From NCBI GenBank assembly GCA_016188155.1, contig JACPIH010000002.1, positions 1-63,398 of the forward strand: DNA of 63,398 nucleotides, given 5' to 3'. Under the pieces are notes generated by a model, which did not search any database, was not told the origin of the DNA, and was given only the letters and a program-made list of their open reading frames with translations. The DNA comes from Candidatus Woesearchaeota archaeon. GTDB lineage: Archaea > Nanobdellota > Nanobdellia > Woesearchaeales > UBA10216. Of the stretch, positions 1,217 to 58,882 are shown piece after piece. The number at the start of each line of letters is the position of its first letter. Positions within the stretch are counted from its first letter, which is position 1. Both the position numbers and the translations under genes were made by a program.

Positions 1217-1518
1217 GTGCAAATCAGTTACGCCGATTGCACAGGTCGGCAGTGGCCGACCGTGCAATCCTGCCGATGCAGGATTTGCACACAGCATCGG
1301 CAACAGCCGATGCGTATAGGCGGCGTAACCGCCTATATTCCGCATAGCGGAATTGTGTCCAGTGGCTTCTGAAGGCGTTTTTGCGGCTTCTTGTGAATAA
1401 AATGCTGAAAAACTTGCGGCTGACGTTAAAAGAATTTCGGAATTTTAGTGGCACTGGTCACTGGACAATACCACGTAGGGTATTTAAGCCAGAAGGCTGC
1501 ATAAACCGGTTATGCAGC
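1217..1518. repeat. Intergenic array of perfect GC-rich hairpins (composite palindromic repeat element)
   Basis: Stems at 1235-1269 (15 bp, one bulge), 1294-1313 (8 bp), 1315-1337 (9 bp), 1337-1353 (7 bp) and 1496-1518 (9 bp). Long-range pairings 1217-1225/1282-1290 and 1356-1364/1459-1467. Confidence 0.85.
1354..1421. repeat. ~68-bp dispersed direct repeat, copy 1
   Basis: tgtgtccagtggcttctgaaggcgtttttg... aligns with 6799-6866 tgtgtcaagtggcttcttcaggcgtttttg... Confidence 0.75.
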
Positions 1519-6798: not shown

Positions 6799-6866
6799 TG
6801 TGTCAAGTGGCTTCTTCAGGCGTTTTTGTTGGCTGCTGTGAGTGAAACGTTGAAATTCTTCCGGTT
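6799..6866. repeat. ~68-bp dispersed direct repeat, copy 2
   Basis: Homologous to 1354-1421. Lies between the converging ybaK and fic genes. Confidence 0.75.
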
Positions 6867-35946: not shown

Positions 35947-36327
35947 ATGGCACTAGGCATACAGGTATTCGGAATCGTGTTCGGGGCATTCATGCTTTAC
36001 ATGAGCTTCCTTCAGTGGAAGAAGAAAGAGTTCACGTTCAATGAGTGGGCGTTCTGGAGCCTATTTGCCTTGGCGTTTAGCGGAGTATCGCTTTTCCCAC
36101 AAATACTTGACCCTGTGATAACATTGCTGGAGCTAGGAAGGAAGCTTGACCTTTTCATCATCATTGGCTTCATGTTCCTGATAGCGTCCACATTCTACAC
36201 GTACAAGGTAGTAAGGAAAGTCCAGAAAGGGCTTGACGAGCTAGTAAGGCAGCTCGCATTGGAAAGGGCGCAGGAGCCTGACCTTTTTCCGAAAAAGGTC
36301 AATCAAAAAACTAAAAGAGAAAAATAA
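35947..36327 (+). CDS. DUF2304 family membrane protein
   Basis: Three TM segments, LFPQILD..LELGRKLD, and a C-terminal coiled ending ELVRQLAL. Typical position next to a DPM-synthase-like GT2. Confidence 0.8.
   Translation: MALGIQVFGIVFGAFMLYMSFLQWKKKEFTFNEWAFWSLFALAFSGVSLFPQILDPVITLLELGRKLDLFIIIGFMFLIASTFYTYKVVRKVQKGLDELVRQLALERAQEPDLFPKKVNQKTKREK
36279..36310. repeat. TGACCTTTTT-CCG-AAAAAGGTCAATCAAAAAA element embedded in the 3' end of the DUF2304 CDS
   Basis: Perfect 10-bp inverted repeat plus ATCAAAAAA tail; translated as DLFPKKVNQK. Confidence 0.8.
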
Positions 36328-36383
36328 AAACAACTGCTGCAAAAATACTTAGACGGCAGTCAAATTAATTAACTGGTGATTGA

Positions 36384-46507: not shown

Positions 46508-47827
46508 ATGAAGAGACCAAGCCCCGAATTGAAGCTTATGCTTGTTTTACTGGTGCCTGTTGCAGCCATCCTACTCGTCCATTATTTCATGACAGGGTTT
46601 GTTGTTTACAACGACGGAAGGGGCTATTACACCTGGCTAAGATCGGCAGTTATTGACAGGGATGTTAATTTTACGAACGAGTGGACTTACTACAACACCA
46701 CCCACAGCAAGTTTGCATCAGGCCAAAGGGCAGAGAGCGTTTCCAGCCTGAAAACGCCGAAAGGCTACATGGTAAACATCTATCTTATTGGAAATGCCAT
46801 AATGTGGGCACCTTTCTATCTGACAGCCCATGCCGCTTCCCTGCTTTTAAACGCTGCAGGGTTTGCCGTCAGGACTGATGGCTACGGCTTCCTATACGAG
46901 ATGAGCGTAGGCATTGCAAGCCTAATTTACGGATTTTTAGGGGCATGGATGATTTACAAGTTCTGCAAAAAGTGGTTTGAAAGCAAAACGGCGGTGCTTG
47001 CCACAATTGCGGTCTGGTACGGAACTGCCTTCTTTTGGTACCACGCTGCTGAGCCAAGCATGTCCCACATGAACTCAATATTTTTAACGGCGCTGTTCAC
47101 TCACCTTTGGTATAACACCCTTGGGAAAAGGACAAAGGTGCAGTGGCTGGCGCTTGGGCTTCTGCTGGGGCTTATTTACCTTGTAAGGCAGCAGGAAGTC
47201 CTGTTAGGACTACTGCCGGCTTTTGAACTGATTAAAAGGCTGGCGAAAAAGGTTAATTTTGACACGATAAGAAAAACAGCTATTGCCTCTGCCCTGTTAG
47301 GCATTGGCATCTTCATAATAACCCTGCCCCAGATGCTGATATGGAAAAGGATGTACGGAAGTTACCTGGTGTATTCCTATGGTGACCCGGAGACACTAAA
47401 GTATTGGTACTGGACAATGCCGCAGATACTGCCTTTGTTCTTCTCACAGGCAGCCGGAATGTGGAGAGTGCCCATAATGCTGCTTTCCATCATTGGGCTG
47501 TTCCTCTTTGCAAAAAGGGTAAAAGGCGTTGCCTGGTACTTCGCGGCAGTTGTGCTTGCACAGGTGTTAATAGTTTCTGCGTGGACAGGATGGCCAATTG
47601 GCTACGGGGTGAGGTACCTCCTGGGAATGAGCATATTCTTTGCTTTGGGAGCAGCTCAGCTCATTAGAATGCTAAGAAGCAGGCTAAGCATGAAGGCAAT
47701 TTGTGCAATAGTTTTCTTATTAATCCTGGCAAACTTCATAAATATGCTGATTGTCATGCTTACTGAGATAACCTCAAGAATTCCACTGAGCGAGGTTCTA
47801 AGACTGCTCACCAAAACAGTGCTATGA
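46508..47827 (+). CDS. GT-C-fold-like membrane glycosyltransferase
   Basis: TM1 followed by NDGRGYYTWLRS..D.DVNFTNE; SMSH and VRQQ motifs; about 11 TM segments. Confidence 0.6.
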   Translation: MKRPSPELKLMLVLLVPVAAILLVHYFMTGFVVYNDGRGYYTWLRSAVIDRDVNFTNEWTYYNTTHSKFASGQRAESVSSLKTPKGYMVNIYLIGNAIMWAPFYLTAHAASLLLNAAGFAVRTDGYGFLYEMSVGIASLIYGFLGAWMIYKFCKKWFESKTAVLATIAVWYGTAFFWYHAAEPSMSHMNSIFLTALFTHLWYNTLGKRTKVQWLALGLLLGLIYLVRQQEVLLGLLPAFELIKRLAKKVNFDTIRKTAIASALLGIGIFIITLPQMLIWKRMYGSYLVYSYGDPETLKYWYWTMPQILPLFFSQAAGMWRVPIMLLSIIGLFLFAKRVKGVAWYFAAVVLAQVLIVSAWTGWPIGYGVRYLLGMSIFFALGAAQLIRMLRSRLSMKAICAIVFLLILANFINMLIVMLTEITSRIPLSEVLRLLTKTVL

Positions 47828-48577
47828 AACCCGACCAGCCTTTGGCTTTGCCGACATTGTCTTTACACACAATATTTGAAAGGCACGTTCAGGGTGCTTT
47901 CTCAAGAACAATTGCGTTAAGTCTGAAACAACCAGCCAAAAATACTTGGGCTTGAGCCTGATAGAGGTGAACTCTTCCCCAAATTTCCCCTCACACCCAC
48001 CCCACCTAAGAGGCTTAAAGCCGTTTACGCCCGTAACTTTGTAACCTCGCTTCCTCATTTCATTGACCGCCCATCCTGACTTGTGAAGTTGCCAAGGATT
48101 GCCCTCATATGCGGCCTGGGGCATAAAACCATTTGGTGTAAAGATAATCACCTTCCTCCTGGCAATTTTTTCCATCATATCCAACAGCTTATAGCCATCC
48201 TCTTTTGCAAGGTGCTCTATCACGTCAGAAGCGAGCACGCAATCAAAGGAACCCGGCTTAAACGCCTTCCCTATTTCTAATACGTCCATCACATAATACT
48301 TGTTATGCGTTTTTTCCCCTTTCGCCTTTTCAACGCTTGGCTTAAAGGCGTCCACCCCAACGCTATAAAGCCGATGCTGGAACAATTTGACGGGTGAATT
48401 TGAGCCGCACCCGACGTCAAGCAAGGTTTTGCAATCCCCAACGGCCTTTTCAAGCTCAACCGGGTAGTCAGGGAAAATCTTCCTGTAAAAGCCATAGTAC
48501 AGCTTTCTCAACAGTCTCATAGGCAGTACGCTGCCTATGCGCATCAGCTGCTGCCAATGCTGTTTAATCAAACCCAA
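47822..48577 (-). CDS. Class I SAM-dependent methyltransferase
   Basis: LLDVGCG, FDCVLASDVIEH and FTPNG motifs. Confidence 0.88.
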   Translation of the reverse strand: MGLIKQHWQQLMRIGSVLPMRLLRKLYYGFYRKIFPDYPVELEKAVGDCKTLLDVGCGSNSPVKLFQHRLYSVGVDAFKPSVEKAKGEKTHNKYYVMDVLEIGKAFKPGSFDCVLASDVIEHLAKEDGYKLLDMMEKIARRKVIIFTPNGFMPQAAYEGNPWQLHKSGWAVNEMRKRGYKVTGVNGFKPLRWGGCEGKFGEEFTSIRLKPKYFWLVVSDLTQLFLRKHPERAFQILCVKTMSAKPKAGRVS

Positions 48578-48583
48578 TCAAAC

Positions 48584-49372
48584 TCACCTTTCCTTTTTCC
48601 TGCACACCATGATTATGTGGCTTCCTATGTTGGGAGAGTAATCGCCCAGCTTTATGGCAAGCGACCTAAGGAGAGGGATGTTGTACTGGACAGGGAACAT
48701 CAAGTTGGAACTCAGCTTTTTAATTACTGAGAAATTATGTTCCCGTAATTGCTGCTCAAGAGCCGGGAACGTGTAGTTCCTGATGTGGCCTGCATTGTCC
48801 TTTCCAAGCCGAACCTCGCTGCCTACAGGAAGCTTCCCAAACAAGAGCATGACCCTATTAGAGAGCGAAGCAAGGTTAGGGGTGGTTACGATAAAAATGC
48901 CATTTGGCTTCAACACCCTCCAGACTTCCCCGATAAAAAAATCGGTGTCATAAAGGTGTTCTATAATGTCGCCAGCGTAAGCAGCATCGAAAAGATTGTC
49001 ATGAAACGGGAATGCCTCCTCTGCGCTGCCAACAAATGCCCTAATCCCCTTCTTCCTTGCCTTCGCAACCTCAATCCTGCTTATTTCAAGACCAGCAACG
49101 TCGTAGCCAAGCGACTTCAGGCGCAGCGCAAAGGTTCCGTCCTGGCAGCCAACATCAAGCAGCTTAAGCGGCTTTTCAGCATCGGCAGCAGCCGATGCGT
49201 ATTGGCTATCAGCCAATATCCCGTGGTTAAGCTTCCTGAAGATACTGTAAGCCTTTTCGCGGTAAATGTACACGGGCCGGCGCACAGGCTTAAGATTATA
49301 ATCGCCCTCGTAATAATCCTTTACGCTGCGCCCCTTATGCTTTTTTATCGGTTTCATAAGCATTGACGTCAA
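48584..49372 (-). CDS. Class I SAM-dependent methyltransferase (type 11) with an in-frame hairpin-repeat insertion
   Basis: LLDVGCQDG, GDIIEHLYD, RVLKPNG and TTPN motifs. The start may be ATG 49363. Confidence 0.88.
   Translation of the reverse strand: MTSMLMKPIKKHKGRSVKDYYEGDYNLKPVRRPVYIYREKAYSIFRKLNHGILADSQYASAAADAEKPLKLLDVGCQDGTFALRLKSLGYDVAGLEISRIEVAKARKKGIRAFVGSAEEAFPFHDNLFDAAYAGDIIEHLYDTDFFIGEVWRVLKPNGIFIVTTPNLASLSNRVMLLFGKLPVGSEVRLGKDNAGHIRNYTFPALEQQLREHNFSVIKKLSSNLMFPVQYNIPLLRSLAIKLGDYSPNIGSHIIMVCRKKER
49178..49219. repeat. Two-hairpin repeat module inside the methyltransferase CDS
   Basis: 49177-49202 matches 1292-1317 at 25/26 nt. Adjacent hairpin tattggct-atc-agccaata. The segment encodes ILADSQYASAAADA. 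Confidence 0.8.
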
Positions 49373-51054: not shown

Positions 51055-51840
51055 ATGAAAACAGCAATAGAAGCAGACTACTTTTATAGAGACAGGTATA
51101 AACCAAGGGAAAGGGTAAACTTGTTTGTTGAAAAGATTTTCCTGGCGTGGATTTCAGCAAATGCAAAAGGCAAAAAGGTCCTTGATTCGGGCTGTGGCAA
51201 TGGCATACGCACTGCCCAGCTAACCAAAGATTTTGATGTTACTGGGATTGATATTTCTGAAAACAACCTTAAGCAGGCACGAATGCTGGGGCTTAAAGCT
51301 ATAAGGCACGATTTTACCAAAAAGCTGCCATTCAGGGACGCAGAATTTGATACGGCAGTAAGCTGCCAAGTGATTGAACACGTTTACGATACGGATTTTT
51401 ACCTGTCAGAAATTCACAGGGTATTGAAAAAAGGCGGCACACTGCTGATAACAACCCCGAATGCCGTCAGTCTAACAGACCGCTTAAGAGTAATGTTCGG
51501 GAAGCTTCCCGTAACCTGCGAAGTAAGCCTGCATTACAAGATTGGCTCAAAAGAAAAACCAAACGGCCATATCAGGCCTTATACTTTTCCTGAACTGAGG
51601 CATCAGTTACAGCGGATAGGCTTTAAGGTTGTTGAAGAGCGAACGACAAACTTTCCTTTTCCAGTCTACTGGGCAATGCCTGCCGCATTGAAGAAGCTCG
51701 CCACTAGGCTGGGCGCATTAAAGCCTTCGTTTGGTGGTCAAATAATGGTTAAAGCTGTAAAAATAGTGCTTAGTCAACAGTACGGGCAGGAGCGGCAGCT
51801 TCTTCTCGCAGCCGATCGTGATAAACGTATAAGACAATAG
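51055..51840 (+). CDS. Class I SAM-dependent methyltransferase (type 11)
   Basis: VLDSGCGNG, QVIEHVYD, RVLKKGG and TTPN motifs; paralogue of 48584-49372. Confidence 0.88.
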   Translation: MKTAIEADYFYRDRYKPRERVNLFVEKIFLAWISANAKGKKVLDSGCGNGIRTAQLTKDFDVTGIDISENNLKQARMLGLKAIRHDFTKKLPFRDAEFDTAVSCQVIEHVYDTDFYLSEIHRVLKKGGTLLITTPNAVSLTDRLRVMFGKLPVTCEVSLHYKIGSKEKPNGHIRPYTFPELRHQLQRIGFKVVEERTTNFPFPVYWAMPAALKKLATRLGALKPSFGGQIMVKAVKIVLSQQYGQERQLLLAADRDKRIRQ

Positions 51841-57789: not shown

Positions 57790-57833
57790 AAAGGAAGAAA
57801 TACCTTGTGACCGGAGGAACAGGATTCATATGA
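57786..57833 (+). pseudogene. 15-codon abortive NAD-epimerase N-terminus (MKRKKYLVTGGTGFI*) terminated by a palindromic element
   Basis: ATGA-coupled to the upstream stop. Duplicates the KKYLITGGSGFI start of the next gene; the stop is the TGA of the repeat. Confidence 0.7.
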
Positions 57834-57863
57834 CCTTTTTAGAAAAAAGGTCAATCAAAAAAA
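57831..57863. repeat. TGACCTTTTT-AGA-AAAAAGGTCAATCAAAAAAA element
   Basis: Near-identical to 36279-36310. Confidence 0.85.
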
Positions 57864-58882
57864 TGAAGAAAAAAATGAAGAAGTACCTCATAACTGGCGG
57901 AAGTGGATTTATCGGGAGTGCCATAGTCAAAAAGCTTGTCTGGAATGGGCACAACGTAAGAGTGCTTGATAATAACCTAAGGGGCGCCTCTGAAAGGCTA
58001 AAGGAAGTGGCCGGAAAAATAGAGCTTGTGCAGGCAGACATACGCGATGCCGCAGCTGTCCAGAAAGCATGCAAGGGCGTTGACTCGGTAATACACCTTG
58101 CCTACCTTCAGGGAACACAGTTCTTCTACACAAAGCCAGAGCTTGTGCTCGACATAGGAGTAAAGGGCATGATAAATGTTATTGGCGGCTGCATCAAGGA
58201 AAACGTAAAGGAGATTGCAGTGGCATCAAGCTCGGAAGTCTACAACATGCCGCCAAAAATCCCAACAGATGAAACCGCTCCTCTTATGATTCCAGACCCG
58301 CTCAACCCCAGATACTCATACTCTGCCGGGAAAATAATAAGCGAGATTATGACGATAAACTACGGCAGAAAAAACTTTGACCGCGCATTGGTCTTCAGGC
58401 CGCACAACGTCTACGGCCCGGACATGGGATGGGAGCACGTAATACCGCAACTGGTTTTGAAAATAAGGAAAATCGCGGCTGCAACTGCGGAAAATAAAAT
58501 AAAAGTGCCTATCCAAGGCACAGGAAAAGAAACAAGGGCATTCATATTCATTGAGGATTTCGTAGACGGCCTGATGCTCGTGCTGGAAAAAGGCGAGCAC
58601 CTCGGAATCTACCATATTGGAACAATGGAGGAAATGCCTATAGCAGCTGTTGCGAAAGAGATAGGGAACTACTTCGGAAGGCAGGTTGAAATCGTGCCAG
58701 GAGAGGCTGCAAAAGGCTCGCCAGCAAGAAGGTGCCCGGACACAACAAAGCTCAAAAAGCTCGGGTTCAAGCCAAAAACGCCATTCAGGGAAGGGCTAAG
58801 GATAACTGCAAAATGGTACGGCCAAAACTCTGAAAAACAGCCAAAGATTTCCCAGAACAGAGGGAAGCTCTATGAGAAATAG
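57863..58882 (+). CDS. NAD-dependent epimerase/dehydratase (UDP-glucuronate decarboxylase-like SDR)
   Basis: ITGGSGFIG, ASSSEVY, YSAGK, RPHNVYGP and RRCPD motifs. In-frame starts at 57830, 57863 and 57875. Confidence 0.9.
   Translation: MKKKMKKYLITGGSGFIGSAIVKKLVWNGHNVRVLDNNLRGASERLKEVAGKIELVQADIRDAAAVQKACKGVDSVIHLAYLQGTQFFYTKPELVLDIGVKGMINVIGGCIKENVKEIAVASSSEVYNMPPKIPTDETAPLMIPDPLNPRYSYSAGKIISEIMTINYGRKNFDRALVFRPHNVYGPDMGWEHVIPQLVLKIRKIAAATAENKIKVPIQGTGKETRAFIFIEDFVDGLMLVLEKGEHLGIYHIGTMEEMPIAAVAKEIGNYFGRQVEIVPGEAAKGSPARRCPDTTKLKKLGFKPKTPFREGLRITAKWYGQNSEKQPKISQNRGKLYEK

Follow-up and report, generated by a model that had tools for sequence, protein, structure and literature searches.

The gene for a class I SAM-dependent methyltransferase in a groundwater, genome-reduced DPANN archaeon (Woesearchaeota) very probably carries a 42-nt, non-autonomous palindromic unit that was copied into its coding sequence, and that is translated there as a tolerated loop within a linker of the protein. 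The unit itself is a discrete, dispersed and genus-specific repeat, which is otherwise at home in hairpin arrays between genes. The stretch of DNA that we analyzed (the window) is contig C36, 63,398 nt in length, from a 1.08-Mb metagenome assembly of 41 contigs that represents a genome 88.7% complete. Positions in the window are collected in Table 1, together with the hosts of similar inserts elsewhere in the genome.

Table 1. Features of the window, and genes elsewhere in the same genome that carry in-frame hairpin pairs
Feature	Position	Strand	Remarks
Class I SAM-dependent methyltransferase (host gene, MTase1)	48584..49372	-	longest ORF 262 aa, from TTG
42-nt two-hairpin repeat unit (CAGC...AATA)	49177..49218	+	boundaries ambiguous by 1 nt
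Hairpin 1 ("B")	49179..49198	+	stem GCATCGGC/GCCGATGC, loop AGCA
Hairpin 2 ("TAT")	49200..49218	+	stem TATTGGCT/AGCCAATA, loop ATC
Closing stem, 5' arm AGCTTAA	49161..49167	+	host coding sequence, L-K codons
Closing stem, 3' arm TTAAGCT	49227..49233	+	host K-L-N codons
Paralogous methyltransferase "MTase2"	47822..48577	-	lacks an insert ahead of motif I here
Diverged 45-nt unit copy	48518..48562	-	5' end of MTase2; CAGCATTGGCAGCAGCTGATGCG + CATAGGCAG-cgta-CTGCCTATG
Third paralogous methyltransferase	51055..51840	+	without insert
Intergenic array of six adjacent hairpins	1219..1353	+	includes reference copy of unit, 1292-1337
In-frame hairpin pair, DHH/DHHA1 protein			Pfam: inter-domain linker
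In-frame hairpin pair, Elp3			between Radical_SAM_C and GNAT
In-frame hairpin pair, PurL			host named from inspected translation only
In-frame hairpin pair, two-domain PLD-like protein			between its domains
In-frame hairpin pair, DTD2			16-residue gap exactly at insert vs PDB 2gfq
In-frame hairpin pair, Ogg-type glycosylase			only partly gapped at insert vs PDB 4ejy
In-frame hairpin pair, FtsY			before SRP54_N

The unit, its host gene and the filled site

The host ORF matched the Pfam families Methyltransf_11, Methyltransf_23 and Methyltransf_25 with complete domains (Methyltransf_11 at 1.3e-17), and matched solved class I SAM methyltransferases in the PDB (3cc8 at 1.9e-14); the top Foldseek matches of the modelled host protein were also class I methyltransferases, in agreement with the fold. 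Translation probably starts at the ATG at 49357, which would yield a protein of 257 aa. Homologues of the host gene, 185 in number, were retrieved from 5.8 billion proteins, and the source names that they carry place the genome in Woesearchaeota. The sequence LLDVGC, which is the glycine-rich SAM motif I that follows strand beta1, is invariant in the family alignment. The gene sits in a surface-glycan gene island, with GT2, flippase and PMT_2 genes as its syntenic neighbours, and two paralogues that are 25-40% identical to it lie within 3 kb.

On the plus strand the unit starts with CAGCATCGGC and ends with GCCAATA, and its two hairpins, which are 1 nt apart, both have perfect stems. Folded as DNA, the whole 42 nt gave a predicted energy of -14.8 kcal/mol (z = -6.4). 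Five of the 6 reading frames through the unit are open. The host gene reads the unit on the minus strand, where it encodes ILADSQYASAAADA, residues 52-65 of the 262-aa ORF; the tryptic peptide that would be tied to the insert is LNHGILADSQYASAAADAEKPLK. Hairpin 1 encodes ASAAADA in whichever orientation it is placed, because it is a palindrome and so yields A-S-A-x-A-D-A in either direction. Among the copies that are described below, a length of 42 nt is the commonest, and others measure 45, 46 or 48 nt.

The original prediction, made from the letters of the window, had pointed to 3 features of this region, each of which was borne out. First, the plus-strand 26-mer from 49177 to 49202, CAGCATCGGCAGCAGCCGATGCGTAT, is identical at 25 of 26 positions to the intergenic sequence 1292-1317; a mismatch-tolerant search of the window found 3 copies of the 26-mer, and none in 100 shuffled sequences. 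Second, hairpin 2 (49200-49218, TATTGGCT-atc-AGCCAATA) resembles the hairpin that occupies 1315-1337 of the array (TATAGGCGG-cgtaa-CCGCCTATA), from which it differs by a compensatory swap of T-A for A-T at stem position 4. Third, the 2 hairpins make up 42 nt, or 14 codons, just ahead of SAM motif I, and the corresponding 14-residue segment is missing from both paralogues in the window. A further stem, AGCTTAA/TTAAGCT, had been proposed to close the region. As RNA, the region is indeed predicted to fold with this stem around it (-38.9 kcal/mol, z = -4.2), but the stem was already present at empty orthologous sites, in G008 (where it extends to 9 bp) and in L003, and it arises from two K-L codon pairs; its occurrence at empty sites makes it part of the target sequence, outside the element. 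Neither Rfam, at gathering thresholds, nor ARAGORN matched a known RNA family anywhere in the window, so that the hairpin arrays do not correspond to a known RNA family.

We aligned the protein with 25 of its closest orthologues, which are up to 87% identical to it, and observed that the 14 residues ILADSQYASAAADA are present in the query only. They are missing from all 25 orthologues as an exact gap of 14 residues, and no orthologue was seen to have a homologous segment of equal length at this position. The site reads ...FRKLNHG / ILADSQYASAAADA / EKPLKLLDVGC, with the insert lying six codons before motif I. At the DNA level, comparison with the two closest orthologues (L001 and L003) gave a single clean gap of 42 nt between near-identical flanks; the same-genus orthologues in two other species, G008 and G002, also have the empty site, which in G008 reads NHDEKPLKLL. 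The inserted 42 nt consist exactly of the conserved 26-mer and the second hairpin, i.e. the ends of the unit coincide with the ends of the insertion. The codon that precedes the insert is GGG and the codon that follows it is GAA, and comparison of filled and empty sites revealed no target duplication at the flanks. Judged from these alignments, the insertion would post-date the split of this species from its closest sequenced relatives. We infer that the insert is translated and close to neutral, as well as the route of insertion that is considered in the last section.

An AlphaFold2 model of the host protein, built from the 26-sequence alignment and of moderate confidence (mean pLDDT 73, pTM 0.75), places residues 52-65 between a helix (36-49) and strand beta1 (70-74), outside the Rossmann core. 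Most of the insert falls in a 10-residue block with a pLDDT of 54, vs 86 and 93 for the neighbouring blocks. As modelled, the insert is most likely a 14-residue flexible surface loop. Rossmann-like folds bind the SAM cofactor at the C-terminal ends of their strands. Since the insert is placed at the N-terminal end of beta1, it would lie away from the cofactor site.

This linker between helix and beta1 has been hit independently twice more. In the MTase2 orthologue of G006, a 48-nt version of the unit is cleanly inserted in frame, two codons before LLDVGCG; it encodes K[TASAKADAYRRPNAAY]TLLDVGCG and, with respect to the gene, has the opposite orientation. Also, an unrelated insert of 42 nt with two perfect hairpins, GCA-CTCGGC-aaaa-GCCGAG-GCA-GTTTCGCC-ata-GGCGAAAC-C, is common to 3 orthologues of the host gene (P0008, P0009 and P0031; identity to the query about 57-66%), where it is located three codons upstream of the insert in the query. 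Assignment of this second insert to a repeat family of its own genome is tentative, and is based on its build of two hairpins and on the lack of it in other orthologues; a search of its own genome for further copies of these hairpins, with up to 2 mismatches allowed, found only the insert itself. Inserts at other positions were seen in the MTase2 gene of G008, which has a unit near the N-terminus and, after motif I, a nested composite of 93 nt, with two more hairpins inside the loop of its hairpin 1. Given the repeated inserts between helix and beta1, this linker is marked in class I methyltransferases as a site that naturally permits loop insertion.

Copies of the unit and hairpin pairs in genome and genus

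About 8 copies of the unit are present genome-wide, including a perfect (26/26) copy of the 26-mer at C14:8253, and the composite formed by the intergenic array is also found in G006, G008 and G009. Of the 11 genomes of the genus, 8 contained the 26-mer pattern with up to 2 mismatches, compared with none of 50 from other genera, and a reversed-pattern control gave no matches. The genus as a whole has 30 or more copies of the unit, which was also detected on 8 metagenome contigs. Some of these copies lie within other hairpins. In G001 (locus L010), which represents another species, a unit that is identical at 41 of 42 positions occupies the loop of a hairpin, as AATCGTGC-aaaa-unit-GCACGATT, and a variant of the unit is nested inside AATCGGGC/GCCCGATT on C14 of the present genome and at L012, L015 and L046. 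Within genes the unit occurs in both orientations, which argues against a strand-specific role as RNA.

Two lesser matches can be mentioned here. The diverged copy at the 5' end of MTase2, which is the third in the window and had been overlooked in the original prediction, is part of 57 extra in-frame nucleotides that this gene has relative to its L001 orthologue. Also, a weak match to the 26-mer at C30:56330 appears by eye to be coding and is without the second hairpin.

The genome is rich in hairpins of this general kind. We counted 597 perfect hairpins vs about 245 in shuffled sequence, an excess of over twofold, and 70 clusters of adjacent hairpins vs 2-11 in the shuffles. Most of the clusters belong to a second, larger hairpin family of the form CCAAGTCGnnn-loop-nnnCGACTGGGCCCAGTCGnnn-loop-nnnCGACTTGG, some hairpins of which begin with CGTC or AGTC. 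A scan of coding sequences across the genome identified in-frame hairpin pairs in at least seven genes other than the methyltransferase (Table 1). In the five hosts that were scanned for domains or aligned with a clean gap, i.e. all except PurL and the Ogg-type glycosylase, the insert falls at an inter-domain linker or at a gap relative to a solved homologue. The insert in DTD2 is unique to this genome, and is lacking from eight orthologues in the genus. All of the gene-internal pairs that we found are multiples of three nucleotides and free of stops in the frame of the host; in a genome census of hairpin pairs that would break the frame of a gene, the sole candidate looked spurious.

Hairpin maintenance and alternative readings

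To describe the pairing, we aligned 13 copies of the unit and compared them with 500 shuffles and with controls in which the pairing register was slid. In the 13 copies 98.5% of the cells were paired; none of the 500 shuffles reached the covariation that we observed, and the slid controls collapsed. Hairpin 1 is conserved. Hairpin 2 exists in at least three stem versions, which are always complementary, and across the 13 copies 4 of its 7 shared stem pairs exhibit double, compensatory changes. A similar pattern was seen within the coding insert that is common to P0008, P0009 and P0031: two compensatory pairs account for four of its six substitutions, the other two are in a loop, and the stems remain fully paired; with substitutions placed at random, and codon constraints ignored, the probability of this outcome is about 0.002. 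Changes of this kind in coding inserts suggest that the hairpins are being kept up in some way, and they make pure neutrality of the inserted sequence an insufficient explanation. One-mismatch hairpins inside genes included 57 with G-T and 40 with A-C, in a set that is swamped by chance hairpins of coding sequence.

A co-opted structural function is hinted at by these compensatory changes, which can nevertheless be explained in other ways. The hairpins or the loop might have acquired a role in mRNA or DNA (as a translational pause ahead of the Rossmann domain, a determinant of RNA stability or a protein-binding site) or in the choice of substrate by the enzyme, and the covariation of hairpin 2 and the arrival of three independent inserts in a stretch of about six residues of a single linker are in keeping with such a role. 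Yet the inserts are species-specific and differ from each other in sequence, orientation and exact position, and the same units occur in intergenic DNA as well as in unrelated genes. Selection against disruptive insertions would also be expected to leave inserts clustered in the linker, and palindromes may stay perfect through repair or conversion within the hairpin, with no function needed. We consider co-option to be quite unlikely.

It is very unlikely that the insertion inactivated or crippled the methyltransferase, leaving a young pseudogene that has yet to acquire stops and is tolerated thanks to the paralogues nearby. A species-specific and therefore recent insertion, its position only six codons from SAM motif I and the two paralogues within 3 kb could each be read in this way. 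Against this, the ORF runs uninterrupted through 262 codons, the gene retains 64 of the 64 columns that are invariant in the family, and in the model the insert would be away from the SAM site. Inserts occur in the linker in three other lineages, and the one that is common to three diverged orthologues has persisted through speciation. Finally, at 25-40% identity the paralogues are unlikely to be redundant with the host gene.

The very stable fold of the insert, enclosed as it is by a stem of host sequence, raises the alternative that the 42 nt never reach the protein, either by removal from the transcript as a bulge-helix-bulge mini-intron, through tRNA-splicing endonuclease, or by ribosomal bypassing, for which there is precedent in the bypassed GC clusters of coding regions (PMC8811140). 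The archaeal bulge-helix-bulge intron is a poor match: by thermodynamic prediction only, both the minimum free energy and the centroid folds are a three-way junction, with an internal loop of 3x1 nt and a helix of 3 bp, and lack the 4-bp helix with two 3-nt bulges at the insert boundaries. A bypass element of the byp or T4 gene 60 type is likewise a poor match, as GGG before and GAA after the insert do not provide a matching take-off and landing codon pair, and as the insert is open in the frame of the host. The fact that every genic hairpin pair is stop-free and a multiple of three would also be needless if the sequences were removed, a point that is weakened by the openness of 5 of the 6 frames of the unit in any case. 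In our judgement, splicing or bypassing is highly improbable.

Chance similarity, alanine-rich coding sequence of low complexity that formed in situ, or a faulty assembly that joined copies of the repeat is effectively refuted: although GCA/GCC/GCT-rich coding sequence can mimic a palindrome (the weak match at C30:56330 being a case in point) and the source is a metagenome assembly in 41 contigs, no matches are expected by chance, the 41/42 identity in another species covers the whole unit, including its second hairpin, and both flanks continue the gene in frame and match the orthologues base for base, up to insertion ends that are those of the unit.

Relation to known elements and mode of spread

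In-frame palindromic repeats are known, as a textbook curiosity, from Rickettsia and from a few bacteria besides. Our full-text search of a collection of papers, with chosen terms, found no description of an archaeal counterpart, including in Woesearchaeota or other DPANN. The original prediction had seen in the methyltransferase a repeat-derived protein sequence, as described for Rickettsia palindromic elements (RPEs), and each check proposed with it had the predicted outcome: the exact gap in orthologues, the linker position in the model and the in-frame hairpin pairs in other genes support this reading. The likeness to RPEs is one of behaviour; it does not extend to membership of the RPEs. 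As outlined in secondary accounts, RPEs of Rickettsia are about 100-150 bp in length and occur both between genes and in frame within them (PMC10969869, PMC3733652, after Ogata et al. 2000). RPEs and the archaeal unit are alike in being dispersed palindromes in the small genome of a host-dependent organism, in occupying intergenic sites as well as in-frame sites in unrelated housekeeping genes, and in adding a peptide at positions compatible with the fold, without destruction of the ORF. The unit is a dispersed hairpin repeat with in-frame copies in MTase1, in MTase2 of G006 and G008, and in an AAA-ATPase-like ORF, and its site in the methyltransferase is a linker; other inserts of this genome lie between Pfam domains or at the 2gfq gap. 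By description, RPEs are set apart from the unit by size and taxon: the unit is 42 nt long and archaeal, it consists of two short covarying hairpins, and it nests in the loops of other hairpins.

Intragenic REPs tagged with GTAG or CGTC were surveyed in bacteria by Di Nocera et al. (2013, PMC3733652), with stems of 5-13 bp and loops of 2-20 nt. That set includes RPE-4, RPE-6 and inserts in Opitutus terrae, its dimers and groups encode 20-30 aa, and REPs of the CGTC type also occur without a dedicated transposase (PMC3733652). Like the unit, these are short stem-loops, often arranged as adjacent dimers and sometimes located in coding regions. Unlike them, the unit carries neither GTAG nor CGTC at its ends and resides in a genome without a RAYT; its hairpins are 1 nt apart, and the 42-nt pair behaves as a single unit with exact ends.

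GC clusters of yeast mitochondria, which are mostly intergenic, can be in frame in var1, where they cause size polymorphism of the protein, whereas the "byp" clusters of Magnusiomyces mitochondria are bypassed and untranslated (PMC8811140). GC clusters resemble the unit as short, GC-rich, palindromic mobile sequences, some of them in frame in a protein gene. However, they are organellar, in an AT-rich context, and mostly have terminal repeats that are taken as target duplications, which the unit lacks; byps, moreover, are not translated, while the frame through the unit is open. MITEs of archaea and bacteria, usually 70-300 bp, can create in-frame fusions (PMC10969869), and share with the unit that they are small, non-coding, multicopy and presumably mobilized in trans; the unit, at 42 nt, differs in having neither terminal inverted repeats nor target duplication, and no parent IS was found for it. 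Elements of the IS200/IS605 and REP/RAYT types are similarly defined by hairpins and produce no target duplication, and a single-strand mechanism would fit well with the apparent preference for hairpin loops, but the present genome lacks the Y1 (HUH) transposase that defines them, as do 9 of the 11 in the genus. The unit is an archaeal and very small variant of RPE-like, intragenic-REP-like elements, and a member of none of the systems compared.

The value of the system lies in the tiny size of the unit, in filled and empty sites at the level of the genus, in recurrent inserts in one linker and in the maintenance of hairpins within coding sequence. Filled and empty sites within one genus make the chemistry of insertion, the tolerance of a 14-residue loop and the upkeep of palindromes open to direct test. 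For annotation, such units explain odd, species-specific inserts in conserved enzymes, and warn against reading these as functional motifs.

With regard to the way in which the unit spreads, we propose that it is a non-autonomous copy-and-insert element, with exact ends and with neither terminal inverted repeats nor target duplication, which would have landed in the loop of a weak hairpin that was present in the host gene beforehand. The gene would stay open by virtue of the length of the unit, a multiple of three, the lack of a stop in the frame used and the location in a linker. The insert would then be transcribed and translated as a flexible loop, tolerated rather than useful. A closing stem of 6 bp or more was present around 28% of the hairpin pairs, compared with 5% of control sites. 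The stem that pre-existed around the methyltransferase insert and the nested copies together suggest insertion into hairpin loops, and so provide a hint of a route that may use hairpin loops or single strands, and not classic cut-and-paste with inverted repeats and duplications.

A search for the Y1/HUH transposase (RAYT, PF01797) gave no match in this genome and matches in 2 of the 11 genomes of the genus, with 6 of 14 reference genomes positive as controls. Presence of Y1 does not track the abundance of units, and it is absent from the genomes that are richest in them. We found no dedicated transposase or other mobilizing function for the unit, no transposase-like or nuclease-like genes were evident by eye beside the four largest arrays of the genome, and unit copies are not flanked by a conserved target tetranucleotide. 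It is conceivable, though we think it unlikely, that a mechanism yet to be described, which recognizes hairpins of DNA or RNA, both spreads the units into hairpin loops, with no target duplication and no Y1 transposase, and keeps their stems paired in coding DNA; if so, protein linkers would be repeatedly rewritten by nucleic-acid structure. The nested units, the excess of closing stems, the earlier stem at the methyltransferase site and the two compensatory changes in the insert of P0008, P0009 and P0031 are hints in this direction. A microhomology that the unit (TCGGCTGC) has with the codons of motif I (TTGGCTGC) was also noticed by eye, and may have a role.

Hairpin pairs in coding sequences

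At the four sites of the source genome, G000, that are listed in the table, the surviving in-frame hairpin pairs are all located between Pfam domains, with borders at DHH/DHHA1, Elp3 Radical_SAM_C/GNAT, PLDc_2/PLDc_2, and the FtsY acidic N-region/SRP54_N. The DTD2 inserts of G000 and of G001, another genome of the same genus, are unlike each other, species-specific and at separate positions, and no DTD2 insert was present in the other 7 orthologues within the genus; together, these observations indicate that such inserts turn over rapidly.

The paralogous methyltransferase MTase2, which neighbours the unit-bearing gene, has at its 5' end 57 in-frame nt more than its orthologue at L001, a locus with close orthologues that were used as empty-site references. 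These additional nucleotides contain a diverged 45-nt unit that ends in CCTATG, and this end provides an in-frame ATG; MTase2 may therefore owe a new start codon, or an extended N-terminus, to the repeat. An MTase2-like gene at L026 carries a nested composite after SAM motif I and before beta2, where two other hairpins are situated inside the loop of the GCATCGGC hairpin, followed by a TAGAGGCAGC hairpin.

Locations of repeats, inserts and transposase genes
Feature	Location	Remark
Surviving in-frame hairpin pairs	G000 C1:8354, C6:1541, C11:4065, C40:5817	
DTD2 insert, 16 aa	G000 C13:24148-24187	
DTD2 insert, about 31 aa	L042/L043 (G001:C45)	
MTase2 5' end with extra nucleotides	window 48518-48577	
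Nested composite, 93 nt	L026 (G008:C16) 796-889	in frame (31 aa)
84-nt composite	metagenome contigs L047, L050, L052	A hairpin + unit + ATTCCGC hairpin
66-nt repeat	window 1354-1419, 6799-6864	two copies, 76% identity
Hairpin TGACCTTTTT..AAAAAGGTCA + A-rich tail	window 36279-36330, 57831-57882	repeat
Y1 transposase genes (PF01797)	L031, L033 (G002); L032 (G005)	two genomes of genus

Composites in metagenomes and Y1 transposases

The reading frame of the metagenomic 84-nt composite is identical to that of the window copy (…YASAAADAE…). Its three sites lie within an AAA-ATPase-like ORF, within an unknown ORF and adjoining the start of a gene that, as judged by eye, resembles a transketolase C-terminal subunit. 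The unit-rich genomes of the genus are without a Y1 transposase (PF01797).

Flanking repeats

Elsewhere in the genome, hairpin pairs are also enclosed by TGACCTTT/AAAGGTCA stems, as if these terminator-like hairpins were preferred landing sites. The first copy of the 66-nt repeat, which could be a promoter, leader or small RNA, is immediately 3' of the intergenic hairpin array at 1219-1353, and in G006 (L024) this sequence likewise comes after the corresponding array.
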